From Candidatus Dojkabacteria bacterium (GTDB taxonomy: Bacteria > Patescibacteriota > Dojkabacteria > SC72), in assembly GCA_018056375.1 (NCBI GenBank), contig JAGPFQ010000001.1, positions 167,995-231,994 of the forward strand: a stretch of DNA of 64,000 nt, given 5' to 3'. Both the position numbers and the translations under genes were made by a program. The stretch's first letter is position 1, and each line of letters opens with the position of its first letter. Positions 18,788-23,628 of the stretch are shown here, piece after piece. The notes beneath the pieces are model-generated. The model did no database searches and had not been told where the DNA came from. It saw only the letters and a list, made by a program, of their open reading frames with translations.

Positions 18788-19480
18788 ATGTCTTATCTTC
18801 CTTTTATTACTGATGAAAAGTTGGTAGATGTTGTTTCAGAATTCCTAAATGATATTGAGAAAATACAGTCACAAGCTCCTATGAAATTTAGAAAAAGTAC
18901 ATTAGATCCTTTCTCTGCCGTTTTATTTTCTCTATGTTGTGGAAAGAATTTGAGTGATTGGTTAGATAATGAGTTGCACAGACAGATAGGTAAGAGTTTT
19001 CAGAATAAAATAGGAGAATTACATCAAAATATATTAGGAAATTGTGATGGATGTGAGGTTGTCGATGATATTATTGATATAAGAAATGTTGAAAAGAAGG
19101 TAATTGCAGAGATAAAGAACAAATATAATACTACAAAAGGAAGTGATAGAAAAACTTTGTATGATAATCTTTCAATTGTTTTACAACAATCGGAGTATTC
19201 AAATTTTACAGGATACTATGTAGAGATTATTCCTAAGGATAAGCAGAGGTATAATAATTGTTTTACTCCTTCAGATAATACAAGTAGAAAAAATAGACCA
19301 TGTAGAGAAGATATTAGAATTGTAGATGGTTATACATTCTATGGAATCATAACAGGATATGAGGATGCTATTAAAATGGTTTATGACATATTACCAAAAG
19401 TTATTAATGATATTACGGGTTCTGGTATAGAAATAGAGTCTGAACCTCTTTTTGAAAAACTTTTCAATAGAACATATTAG
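18788..19480 (+). CDS. putative type II restriction endonuclease (partner of the downstream m5C methyltransferase)
   Basis: operon position immediately upstream of the methyltransferase; possible PD-(D/E)xK catalytic motif (DIIDI ... AEIKNK). Confidence 0.4.
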   Translation: MSYLPFITDEKLVDVVSEFLNDIEKIQSQAPMKFRKSTLDPFSAVLFSLCCGKNLSDWLDNELHRQIGKSFQNKIGELHQNILGNCDGCEVVDDIIDIRNVEKKVIAEIKNKYNTTKGSDRKTLYDNLSIVLQQSEYSNFTGYYVEIIPKDKQRYNNCFTPSDNTSRKNRPCREDIRIVDGYTFYGIITGYEDAIKMVYDILPKVINDITGSGIEIESEPLFEKLFNRTY

Positions 19481-19521
19481 TAACCCTTGCATAAGGTTTC
19501 TCTCTCTGATAAATTATAAAT

Positions 19522-20760
19522 ATGGATGTTCATAATCTCACAATAGGTGAAGTTGCTAATAGATTAAATGTATCTGAGGATACGATTCGTAGGTGGGCAA
19601 AAAAAGGTCTTATTAAATCAACTCGTGGAAAGAATAATTATAGATTGTTTAATCTTAAGGAAATCGAAAGAGTTAAGAAACGTACACAGGGGGATTCGTG
19701 CCATAGAGGGTTTAAGGTTTTAAAATCAAAGAAAAACTATAATTACACAGTTATAGATCTATTCTCAGGTGCTGGTGGAACATCTCTTGGATTGGAAAAT
19801 GCAGGTTTGCAACATAAGCTTTTAGTAGAATTTGATAAATATGCTGTAGAGACATTAAGAACAAATAGACCTAATTGGAATGTTGAGTTTAAAGATATAA
19901 AAGAAGTTGATTTCAGGGGTACGTCTGCAGATATTGTAGAAGGGGGTTTTCCTTGTCAAGCATTTAGTTATGCTGGTAAAAAATTAGGTTTCTCTGATGT
20001 TAGAGGTACATTGTTTTTTGAGTTTGCAAGGTGTGTTTCTGAAGTTAGACCTAAGATTGCAATTGCAGAGAATGTTAAAGGTTTATTAAGGCATGATAAA
20101 GGAAGAACTTTACAGATAATGGTTTCTGTTTTAGAGGAGTTAGGGTATAGAGTTGAATATAAAGTATTAAGAGCACAATATTATGATGTCGCTCAAAAAA
20201 GGGAGAGATTAATCATTATTGGAGTGCGTGATGATTTAAAAATACCAATAATTTTTCCTAAGGAGAATGACTATTTAATTACCTTAAGGGATGCTTTAGA
20301 AGATGTGCCACACTCGGAAGGACAGACATATCCTGAGAAGAAGAGAAAGATTATGGAAATGATTCCTGAAGGTGGTTATTGGAGAGAGTTACCTGAGAAG
20401 TATCAAAAGGAATATATGGGTGCTAGTTATTATCATACAGGAGGTCGTACAGGTATGGCTAGAAGATTATCTTGGGATGAACCTTCTTTAACATTAACTA
20501 CAAGTCCTGCACAAAAACAAACAGAACGTTGTCATCCTTCTGAAACCAGACCTCTTACTGTGAGAGAGTATGCTAGGATACAAAGTTTTCCAGATGATTG
20601 GATGTTTGCAGGGTCAGTAAGTCAACAGTATAAACAGATAGGAAATGCAGTCCCTGTAAATCTAGGTTTTCATATTGGTACTGCATTAATCAAAATGCTT
20701 GAAAATGCCTCTTTAGGTTGTACAACAAACAAAGTTGAAGGTCAGCTAAGTTATTTATAA
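19522..20760 (+). CDS. DNA (cytosine-5)-methyltransferase with N-terminal MerR/excisionase-like HTH
   Basis: motif I FSGAGG, motif IV GFPCQ, motif VI ENV, motif X QIGNAVPV; C-terminal similarity to GGCC-type methyltransferases (recalled from memory). Confidence 0.9.
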   Translation: MDVHNLTIGEVANRLNVSEDTIRRWAKKGLIKSTRGKNNYRLFNLKEIERVKKRTQGDSCHRGFKVLKSKKNYNYTVIDLFSGAGGTSLGLENAGLQHKLLVEFDKYAVETLRTNRPNWNVEFKDIKEVDFRGTSADIVEGGFPCQAFSYAGKKLGFSDVRGTLFFEFARCVSEVRPKIAIAENVKGLLRHDKGRTLQIMVSVLEELGYRVEYKVLRAQYYDVAQKRERLIIIGVRDDLKIPIIFPKENDYLITLRDALEDVPHSEGQTYPEKKRKIMEMIPEGGYWRELPEKYQKEYMGASYYHTGGRTGMARRLSWDEPSLTLTTSPAQKQTERCHPSETRPLTVREYARIQSFPDDWMFAGSVSQQYKQIGNAVPVNLGFHIGTALIKMLENASLGCTTNKVEGQLSYL

Positions 20761-20772
20761 CTTAAAAGTATC

Positions 20773-22242
20773 CTACTGCAACTTCTCAAACTTCCCATCT
20801 TCTAATAGTCTGTAATATCCTGATCCCTCAGGTCCATATAGACTCCATGAGTTAATAGGAACTTGATATGTTTGACCTGTACTTGGTGAAGATAATGTCT
20901 CATACCCTCTCATACCCTCTACCCATTTCTCATTAGATTCAGTTATTAAACCTTTATGATAAGCACTACTTTGAACAGTAAAAGGAGCTCTTCGATTCTC
21001 AGTAGGTTCAACTATTGGTAGTAATGTATTCTTCCTTATAATACTACTATCAACAAAGTCAAAACTGTCTTGCATCTTCTGTAAAGTATCTTTTACATTA
21101 TCCCAATTCTCAGCTAATGTCATCTGTCCAAATCCATAAGCTGATGCATATTTAGTTCCACTAGCAGAGTATGGAGGTTGATATATTCCCACAGTTATTT
21201 TACCTAGAATAGGTATACCTTGCATCTTAGCACTAAGGTTAAACTCCTGTACACTATACCCTAATACTTGAGAAGGTAATACTGTTTCATCTGTTAATGT
21301 AAGATCTGTTATTTCCTTAACCTCTGCGAACGTCTCTTCTACCCAAAATTTAGGTGTATAGTCACCTTTTAATTCTGTTGTGTACATGTAGCTAAGTAAT
21401 GTTCTTTGATCAGGTCCTACTAATTGAATAAAACCTTCTTTCTCTTCAGAGATGGTATAACCGGTAGCCTTATCTAACTGGAAGTATTTTCCTTTGTATT
21501 TCTTAAAACCTTCAGGAGTTTCTTCCTTTACTTCTTCTTTGGGTTTTGCTGTTAAAATATCATCTGTAAGTACTTTTGTTCTTGCAAAACACCCTGAAAT
21601 CTCCTTTAAGAAACCTTCTCTCTCTTCAAATATCTCTGCAGGTGCCCAATATACTTTAAATGTAACAAAATCTTTTGTTTTAGAAACATGCATTTTTCCT
21701 TTAATATCATACTCGTTGATTTGAGCTATGACATCTGCATAAATCTCATCCTCTAACTCTTCTATCTTTTGAATCTCCTGCATCTCAAATGTCCCACCTC
21801 CTTCTTCAGTAGTTTCTTTTAAGATTTTAGAGAATGTGTTTAGGAAATCCTCTTTTGTTAATTCTGGCTGTGATTTAGCAGTATATATGAGTACTGCAGT
21901 AGTATTTGTCTCATCTTCCATTATTGAGACAGTACCGCTTTCAACCGCATAGTACCATCCATTTGGAACACCAATACTAAAGGCATTCTCAGGATACTCT
22001 ATCCTCTTAAACGAACAACTAGGGTTGTCGTTTTCTACAGTCTCAGCGTAATACTCATCTCTACCAATACCTAAATCCTTTAGAATTGTTTCTAAAGATC
22101 CTGTTAGATAGAGGGCACCTAAGAGTGCGACTACGAGGATTATTATGGTTGAAATAATTATAGATTTCTTGTGTTTTGTAAAGAAATCTGTAGACTGGGC
22201 TTCTTTCATATCGCTTAATGATATAAAATTATGTCTTTTCAA
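20773..22242 (-). CDS. hypothetical membrane-anchored extracellular protein
   Basis: 489 aa, single N-terminal TM, no recognisable domain. Confidence 0.45.
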   Translation of the reverse strand: MKRHNFISLSDMKEAQSTDFFTKHKKSIIISTIIILVVALLGALYLTGSLETILKDLGIGRDEYYAETVENDNPSCSFKRIEYPENAFSIGVPNGWYYAVESGTVSIMEDETNTTAVLIYTAKSQPELTKEDFLNTFSKILKETTEEGGGTFEMQEIQKIEELEDEIYADVIAQINEYDIKGKMHVSKTKDFVTFKVYWAPAEIFEEREGFLKEISGCFARTKVLTDDILTAKPKEEVKEETPEGFKKYKGKYFQLDKATGYTISEEKEGFIQLVGPDQRTLLSYMYTTELKGDYTPKFWVEETFAEVKEITDLTLTDETVLPSQVLGYSVQEFNLSAKMQGIPILGKITVGIYQPPYSASGTKYASAYGFGQMTLAENWDNVKDTLQKMQDSFDFVDSSIIRKNTLLPIVEPTENRRAPFTVQSSAYHKGLITESNEKWVEGMRGYETLSSPSTGQTYQVPINSWSLYGPEGSGYYRLLEDGKFEKLQ

Positions 22243-22432: not shown

Positions 22433-22924
22433 TTATAAACCAAATCTCCTGGCTATCTCTGCTGCTTTGTCATACTCAGAGGCTACTAATTCCTGAACAA
22501 TATGACGCCTAGGAGAAAAGATGTTAAGATCGGCTCTTCTATTAATTTTCGCTGATTTAAGTGCTTCAAATGTTGTAATATTTATCTTTCCTACGCGATC
22601 AAAAATGTTGTGTATCTCAACAAACTTGTGTACTTCGCAATTATCCCAACAGTAGTAACTTTCGACTAACTTACCTGAGTATGCAGGTTCAATCTCTTCA
22701 AAATCACTGGGCATAATTGTTAAGGATTCTGGAACCCCTCTCTTATATCGTTTGGTCGTAGCTACGATAAAACCATAGATATCCAGTTTGTTAACAAGAA
22801 TGACAAGAAGTTTGTATTTATTTCGTCTTTCTTGGGTAGAAGGATTAATTGAATTTGGGTGATAATAAACTGTTCGTTTCTTTAAATCTAGACGATTAGA
22901 TACCTTACTCATTTGTAGTGTCAA
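22433..22924 (-). CDS. candidate toxin partner (PanT-like) of the Panacea antitoxin; unknown fold
   Basis: 163-aa basic protein, 20-nt overlap with the upstream antitoxin gene. Confidence 0.4.
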   Translation of the reverse strand: MTLQMSKVSNRLDLKKRTVYYHPNSINPSTQERRNKYKLLVILVNKLDIYGFIVATTKRYKRGVPESLTIMPSDFEEIEPAYSGKLVESYYCWDNCEVHKFVEIHNIFDRVGKINITTFEALKSAKINRRADLNIFSPRRHIVQELVASEYDKAAEIARRFGL

Positions 22925-23450
22925 GGTTTAAATCTTCATTTAAGTGTTCTGTTCCTCCCAAGGTTGCTCCGAGAACTTCCATAGGTTTGGTTTTATAGGT
23001 AATTTCTGTCAATGTTTTTGCACTATAGTCTTTTAATTCTGTGAGAACTTCATTTATGATGTCCTTTTCTGGTTGTGTAAGACATTGTAAAGTGTAGGAT
23101 TTCTTTGCCTTGTATACAGCATAACAAGATAATTTGTCTTCAGAAAAAATAAGCTCTGCGGAAATAAGATCCTGATTTTGCATTTTTTCTACTATTGAAT
23201 ATATTGAAGAATCAAAAGGTCCATAGAAGTATCGTTTATAGGAGAAATTGCTAATTTTTTGTCCTGTTTGCTTCTTTGAGACCAAATCTATAATATATGA
23301 CAGTTTCATTAAAACAGTAATGGTAGCTACCTTATGTTGCTTTATAATACAATAAAGCAACTCTTTTGTTTTATCCATATTTGAGTATATCATAAGTTCA
23401 TAGAAATGACTAAGGGAGCTATATGAATGAAGAATATGATAATTTTTCAA
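22905..23450 (-). CDS. Panacea-domain (DUF4065, SocA-like) antitoxin
   Basis: KLSYIIDLVS ... YFYGPFDSSIY matches the DUF4065 core (KLqKLlY...GPv..ly). Confidence 0.6.
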   Translation of the reverse strand: MKNYHILHSYSSLSHFYELMIYSNMDKTKELLYCIIKQHKVATITVLMKLSYIIDLVSKKQTGQKISNFSYKRYFYGPFDSSIYSIVEKMQNQDLISAELIFSEDKLSCYAVYKAKKSYTLQCLTQPEKDIINEVLTELKDYSAKTLTEITYKTKPMEVLGATLGGTEHLNEDLNLDTTNE

Positions 23451-23550
23451 AAATGCTGTTCTACAACCTTAGGTTAGGTGATAAGAAAGTCGTAGACTAT
23501 CAACTAAATGAGCTATTCAAAAGCTATGCAAAAGTGGTAAAACTACCATC

Positions 23551-23628
23551 TGGGGTGAGTAATGGGAGTTGAACCCACAACCTCTGGTGCCACAAACCAG
23601 CGCTCTAACCAATTGAGCTATACCCACC
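23551..23628 (-). tRNA. tRNA-His (GTG) with G-1
   Basis: reverse complement folds as a cloverleaf; 8-bp acceptor stem with G-1:C73, anticodon loop TTGTGGC, T-loop TTCAACT, CCA encoded. Confidence 0.85.

Follow-up and report, generated by a model that had tools for sequence, protein, structure and literature searches.

A putative Panacea-domain antitoxin gene paired with a gene for a cryptic protein of predicted MazF/PemK fold in Candidatus Dojkabacteria

The analyzed window is a 64,000-nucleotide stretch of a Candidatus Dojkabacteria bacterium contig with a G+C content of 34%. It carries two overlapping genes on the minus strand, in agreement with the two open reading frames (ORFs) described here by the initial annotation. 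The upstream gene, panA (22905 to 23378), encodes a standalone Panacea/SocA-domain protein of 157 amino acids, the putative antitoxin, and runs from an ATG at 23378 to a TAA stop codon at 22907 to 22905. The downstream gene, panT (22433 to 22912), begins with an ATG at 22912, ends with a TAA at 22435 to 22433, and encodes a 159-amino-acid basic protein of predicted MazF/PemK fold, the putative toxin. Mechanically delimited ORFs start earlier, at TTG codons at 23450 for panA (181 aa) and 22924 for panT (163 aa), but public gene calls and homolog alignments favor the ATG at 23378 (157 aa; MDKTKELLYC) and the ATG at 22912 (159 aa; MSKVSNRL). With these supported starts, the overlap between the genes is not 20 nt, as first reported, but 8 nt (ATGAGTAA, 22905 to 22912, read directly from the sequence). 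Likewise, the partner of PanA is basic, as had been noted, but 159 rather than 163 aa long. The isoelectric points of PanT (9.49) and PanA (6.16) give a basic toxin and a slightly acidic antitoxin, a charge pattern that fits a toxin-antitoxin pair. Proteins identical to PanT and PanA are labeled "hypothetical protein" and "SocA family protein," respectively, at NCBI, both from Candidatus Dojkabacteria bacterium; identical PanA (P0015) was found on 85 contigs and identical, intact PanT on 52.

Upstream of the pair, a tRNA-His(GTG) gene (23551 to 23627, minus strand; predicted by ARAGORN) lies approximately 100 nt from the mechanical panA ORF, with glmS further out. The adjacency to tRNA-His pointed out earlier is thus real, and we take it as context outside the module. 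We rejected the tRNA gene as an integration site or as a property of the module because there is no integrase nearby and no GC or compositional anomaly and because the adjacency is not recurrent: a tRNA occurs within the flanks of only 2 of 21 related loci. Between the tRNA gene and panA, a consensus scan returned a tentative promoter-like site on the minus strand (23384 to 23412), with TAGTCA, a 17-nt spacer, and a TG-extended TATACT. Such sites are not above chance in the region (4 found versus 6.1 expected from shuffled sequences), and we offer this one as a suggestion only. With 5 nt between the site and the panA ATG, an mRNA transcribed from the site would be leaderless or nearly so. Just downstream, codons 1 to 15 of panA contain an inverted repeat with perfect 10-bp arms and a 6-nt loop (GTTGCTTTAT / ATAAAGCAAC; 23336 to 23361), which was scored as terminator-like for the other strand. 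It may serve as an operator, or AT-rich DNA may have produced it by chance. Public annotations (L001 to L004) list a 49-aa ORF on the plus strand (23423 to 23572) as a gene. This is almost certainly a spurious call, as the ORF overlaps both tRNA-His and the TTG-to-ATG extension of panA on the opposite strand.

The Panacea core that the initial annotation had recognized in the ORF at 22905 to 23450 is present, including the segments KLSYIIDL and YFYGPFDSSIY. PanA matches the Pfam family PF13274 SocA_Panacea (DUF4065) with 57.9 bits against a cutoff of 25.7 (E = 2.3e-15), over profile positions 1 to 110 of 113, and the same domain was detected in all 25 close PanA homologs. Searches of PHROGs and PADLOC gave weaker matches only, all to families containing the same domain (PDC-M19A, a type I specificity subunit, and DarG). 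The AlphaFold2 (AF2) model of PanA (pLDDT, 94; pTM, 0.90) is a single globular unit, and the protein has no additional helix-turn-helix, PAD1, or zinc-binding domain. A C-terminal tail, LGATLGGxExLNxxLxL, is nearly invariant among the homologs; it lies beyond the Pfam Panacea model and packs against the globular domain in the AF2 model. Comparison of the PanA model (m862200bca7b8; 22908 to 23378, minus strand) with PDB structures gave no significant match, the best being the winged-helix proteins Pex, PadR, and LmrR (E ≥ 0.02; TM, 0.3 to 0.45). We judged this PadR/Pex likeness too weak to count as a sign of DNA binding.

By sequence, PanT resembles no described family. Neither the 159-aa nor the 163-aa version matched any entry in Pfam, NCBIfam, PHROGs, or PADLOC, and phmmer and profile searches against the PDB found nothing beyond a thioredoxin at E = 0.036, which we judged to be a chance match. 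When nine members of the toxin family were searched against Pfam at E ≤ 1, none matched PF02452 (PemK_toxin), and the scattered single weak matches to other families (DUF4252, SIR3_C, and DUSP) were likewise attributed to chance. An exhaustive HMMER search of 1.84 billion cluster representatives returned 12 matches at E ≤ 1e-3. Eight are full-length proteins of 129 to 165 aa with 21 to 37% identity; two much longer ones, P0009 (1,282 aa) and P0011 (998 aa, with Ig-like repeats), look spurious. To judge from these searches, the toxin lineage is rare and stands outside any curated sequence family. An alignment of nine members has its own set of conserved motifs (LYFHPxSxExST, [RK]xKYKLL, FIVGT[ST]K, DWE, GYYSW, YVAKLK, and a C-terminal RLG[LI]). 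When profiles built from 9 and 26 toxin sequences were compared by hhalign with a MazF/Kid alignment, the probability was below 1% and the match not significant. This negative result is weak because the reference alignment is shallow, consisting of four sequences, which a PDB search confirmed as MazF/Kid. As no profile-profile match was significant, we did not file PanT under Pfam PemK_toxin.

Structure prediction gave a different picture. The AF2 model of PanT, built on the nine-sequence alignment, has a mean pLDDT of 89.4 and a pTM of 0.85, with all five models at 78 or above. Its elements run in the order β14-22, β29-40, β45-52, β63-66, β71-74, β85-96, α97-103, β105-110, and α112-120, and this β1-β2-β3-β4-β5-β6-α-β7-α order is that of MazF; two extra helices follow at 135 to 144 and 147 to 157. 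In a Foldseek comparison with the PDB, all of the 50 best matches were MazF-type endoribonucleases, with a probability of 1.00 and target-normalized TM scores of 0.65 to 0.77 over approximately 116 to 125 columns. The best was 5hkc_A (E = 4.2e-5; TMt, 0.75), and the matches include MazF-mt3, MazF-mt1, Bacillus subtilis EndoA/YdcE, Staphylococcus aureus and Escherichia coli MazF, and Bacillus anthracis MoxT. Among the predicted viral structures in BFVD, the best matches were annotated as "Endoribonuclease" and "PemK-like protein." The model is therefore unambiguously that of a MazF/PemK-fold domain (residues ∼13 to 120) with a C-terminal helical extension of about 40 residues. The earlier statement that the partner of PanA has no recognizable toxin fold holds at the level of sequence, where no family matches, and fails at the level of structure, where a MazF/PemK fold is predicted.

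To look for a putative active site, we used an alignment of 26 toxin sequences, in which T52 and K32 are each conserved in 25 of the 26 and K34 in 24, and position 30 (R/K) is mostly basic. Under permissive settings, profile alignments run collinear along the whole MazF domain and place R30 of PanT on R29 of E. coli MazF and T52 on T52; these equivalences derive from nonsignificant alignments and the secondary-structure register. The catalytic residues documented for MazF are an Arg and a Thr, R25 and T48 in the B. subtilis protein (PMC10893535). The pattern is suggestive of an RNase active site that has been retained in PanT, possibly with Lys in place of Arg.

We then considered how consistently the two genes occur together. 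PanA lies immediately upstream of a toxin-family member at every one of the 24 distinct loci, besides the window, where this could be assessed, a count that excludes L011 and L013 as duplicates of L010 and L012. On the metagenomic contigs that carry a toxin homolog (L005 to L011), a Panacea gene of 151 to 162 aa is directly upstream and overlaps it by 1 to 23 nt. More distant PanA relatives (L012 to L016) are followed by proteins of 157 to 170 aa that match the toxin-family HMM with E values of 1e-14 to 1e-21. When the PanA alignment was run against genomes representing GTDB species, 16 loci were obtained, 14 of which extend past PanA (L017 to L030), and a toxin-family member is directly downstream in each of these 14 (E = 5e-28 to 1.5e-5). 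Across the homologous loci, the two genes overlap by 1 to 23 nt or are separated by gaps of 3 to 9 nt. At the same loci (L005 to L030), PanA homologs are 46 to 55% identical to the PanA of the window, compared with 23 to 30% for the toxin homologs. The neighborhoods are otherwise unrelated and include a type I restriction-modification (R-M) system (L007), an AAA_15/AAA_21 ATPase with a resolvase (L005), a recombinase (L006), and housekeeping genes (L012). Patescibacteria/CPR account for about half of the named metagenome-assembled genomes (MAGs), with Doudnabacteria, Moraniibacteriota, Paceibacterota, Parcubacteria, and Saccharimonadales in addition to the Dojkabacteria source; the others belong to Omnitrophota, Planctomycetota, Aminicenantes, Alphaproteobacteria, and Eubacteriales. 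The proposal that this is a Panacea antitoxin and toxin module (PanAT) is thus well supported by the domain, the gene order, the overlap, and strict co-occurrence in unrelated contexts.

Pairs of this kind have been described before. Kurata et al. (2022, PNAS, PMC8832971) list PemK among the PanT domains recognized by CDD and validate, together with PanA, MazF/PemK-like PanTs from P. moraviensis and B. ruminantium. According to the same study (PMC8832971), those two toxins have no CDD match, are MazF-like by HHpred, and specifically inhibit protein synthesis, and PanA neutralizes PanT through complex formation. Clusters T5 and T6 of that dataset (PMC8832971) comprise a "noNTD" PanA followed by a MazF-like toxin in the order A|T, the genes either overlapping (−1 to −4) or lying a short gap apart; accessions listed for the MazF-like clusters (T5, T6, and others) include WP_083201923.1 (P. 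moraviensis) and WP_116809181.1 (cluster T5). The supplementary table (PMC8832971) also records a predicted MazF-like PanT from F. xanthum that was nontoxic in E. coli and a C. bovis PanA (pair WP_076782181.1/WP_076782182.1) that was itself toxic. Direct neutralization by standalone Panacea antitoxins is reported by Ernits et al. (2023). The module in the window shares with the MazF/PemK-like PanATs an antitoxin-first bicistronic arrangement, a small overlap, and a Panacea protein without an N-terminal domain ("noNTD"), and its toxin shares, by description, the lack of a CDD or Pfam match together with a predicted MazF/PemK/EndoA-like structure. It differs in length, being 159 aa as opposed to the ∼110 to 120 aa of a typical MazF, owing to the two-helix C-terminal extension, and in a host range centered on Patescibacteria/CPR MAGs, none of which was seen in the listed part of the dataset of Kurata et al.

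Compared with MazEF and PemIK (Kis-Kid), PanT has the same predicted SH3-like barrel with a C-terminal helix and, by nonsignificant alignment, the positions of the catalytic pair are taken by a conserved Thr that closes β3 and a basic residue that opens β2. The basic toxin, the acidic antitoxin, and the antitoxin-first operon are also common to both. In contrast to the PF02452 toxins, however, PanT has no detectable sequence similarity to them, often has Lys in place of the catalytic Arg, and bears the extra C-terminal helical module, and the antitoxin is a globular Panacea protein rather than a DNA-binding AbrB/SpoVT or ribbon-helix-helix domain followed by a disordered C terminus. CcdAB likewise combines the MazF superfold with a type II toxin-antitoxin context, but no CcdB is found among the 50 best structural matches of PanT. 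In Caulobacter SocAB, the antitoxin, the founding SocA/Panacea protein, carries the domain as well; there, SocA serves as an adaptor for proteolysis of the toxin SocB, and the target of SocB is the DNA polymerase sliding clamp. Here, by comparison, the partner toxin is of an unrelated predicted fold, that of MazF, and direct neutralization is expected.

The suggestion that PanT might represent a new PanT family is borne out only in part. The lineage lies outside all curated sequence families and is rare, with 12 matches among 1.84 billion representatives, but its predicted fold is MazF/PemK and such pairing is already published. Since Kurata et al. described and validated pairs of PanA and a cryptic MazF-fold PanT, the module is of a known kind, and its novelty is limited to this rare, CPR-centered lineage, in which the toxin bears a C-terminal extension; neither the toxin type nor the class of system is new. 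Structure prediction thus places a "toxin of unknown fold" beside a Panacea antitoxin in the common MazF/PemK superfold, which supports the published view that much of the sequence-level diversity of PanTs reduces to a small number of folds. In practical terms the gain is modest: an annotation for a family of at least 26 sequences that lacks a Pfam entry and is half CPR/Patescibacteria, organisms with tiny genomes whose toxin-antitoxin and defense content is poorly charted.

The reading that we favor, and consider probable though well short of certain, is that panA and panT form a type II PanAT module in which a diverged MazF-fold endoribonuclease is neutralized by direct binding of PanA, with a plausible role in defense. 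The two genes would be cotranscribed, panA first, and from their 8-nt overlap we propose that their translation is coupled. PanT, as a highly diverged MazF/PemK-fold toxin, would act as a ribosome-independent endoribonuclease and arrest translation by cutting RNA. Thr52, at the end of β3, and R/K30 or K32, at the start of β2, would take the roles of the catalytic Thr and Arg of MazF. The 157-aa standalone Panacea protein would neutralize PanT through direct protein-protein binding. The module appears to be an accessory, horizontally mobile element that resides among defense genes (here, an Eco47II-type R-M system), and as it has similar neighbors elsewhere, a role in phage defense or abortive infection is plausible.

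The conserved pair may instead be something other than a classical self-poisoning toxin-antitoxin system, for example, a nontoxic or dead MazF-fold protein, a phage-triggered sensor/effector, or a pair with yet another role. A sensory function for Panacea is favored by Ernits et al. (2023), R-M or ATPase defense genes adjoin the module in several loci, and some predicted PanTs, including the F. xanthum protein of Kurata et al., are nontoxic in E. coli. PanA is also conserved far better than the toxin, as the identities above indicate, and a natural allele, described below, retains PanA and truncates the toxin. Nevertheless, the strict antitoxin-then-toxin overlapping architecture and the coinheritance of the genes are typical of type II modules, the conservation of K32, K34, and T52 argues for a maintained active site, and defense and toxin-antitoxin behavior can coexist. 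We regard a nonclassical role as rather unlikely, although it deserves some weight alongside the endoribonuclease module.

A further possibility concerns the standing of the lineage. PanT may belong to a distinct, unnamed clade of the MazF superfold that is obligately paired with one Panacea lineage, is enriched in the ultra-small Patescibacteria, and has a Lys-based site (K32/K34) and an added two-helix module. Because of the Lys-based site and the added helices, its substrate or mechanism could differ from those of canonical MazF. If so, the target could be a specific tRNA, rRNA, or, as with CcdB, something other than RNA, and the C-terminal extension might be a docking surface for PanA or a surface that senses a trigger. 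We find this idea doubtful.

A related proposal keeps the PanAT module and the fold and makes PanT a CcdB-like gyrase poison, or a toxin with another non-RNA target, rather than an endoribonuclease. MazF/Kid and CcdB have one fold in common, the canonical catalytic Arg is not clearly kept in PanT, where Lys occupies the best-conserved basic positions, and the extreme C terminus of the toxin family (R/K-L-G-L/I) loosely recalls the C-terminal W-G-I that CcdB needs for gyrase poisoning. In addition, CcdB appears in the HHpred lists of Kurata et al. for MazF-like PanTs. Against this, the 50 best PDB fold matches are all MazF-type RNases with no CcdB among them, the near-invariant Thr at the end of β3 lines up with the catalytic Thr of MazF, and the MazF-like PanTs validated in that study block translation, not replication. 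A gyrase poison or another non-RNA target thus seems quite improbable to us. Finally, although the AF2 model is backed by only nine sequences and the toxin has no sequence-family support, we consider it exceedingly improbable that the 159-aa ORF is not a gene or that the fold match is an artifact of a thin alignment, as homologs that share the conserved motifs follow PanA at each of 24 further distinct loci, which essentially rules out a non-gene or modeling artifact, and as the five AF2 models all reach a pLDDT of 78 or more and two independent structure libraries agree on the fold class with a probability of 1.00.

Directly downstream of panT lies a 489-aa ORF (20773 to 22242, minus strand) that has a hydrophobic N-terminal segment and matches no Pfam family, the best hit being DUF1103 at a subthreshold E value of 0.006. 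Beyond it, two genes from the toxin-antitoxin module, a type II R-M pair is located on the plus strand (18788 to 20760). The endonuclease belongs to the Eco47II family (PF09553; E = 1e-48), and the methyltransferase is a C5 cytosine enzyme (PF00145; E = 6e-86) with a fused N-terminal MerR-type helix-turn-helix (PF00376; E = 4e-13). Together, the R-M pair and the PanAT pair look like a small defense cluster.

We also observed, in part of the population, a natural deletion allele at this locus, in which 1,543 bp is missing between 10-bp direct repeats (ATTATCCCAA) at 21097 to 21106 and 22640 to 22649. It is present on 20 to 21 contigs from at least four samples (loci L001 to L004), compared with the 52 contigs with an intact toxin, and is carried by the same strain, the sequences being 99.97 to 100% identical elsewhere. 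Across the deletion, the reading frame continues from toxin residue 91 into the C-terminal 107 residues of the 489-aa orphan encoded downstream; the product is a 198-aa protein (P0002) that begins with toxin residues 1 to 91 and lacks the N-terminal 382 residues of the orphan, and panA is left intact. Whether selection acts on the module in situ could be studied with this toxin-truncating allele.
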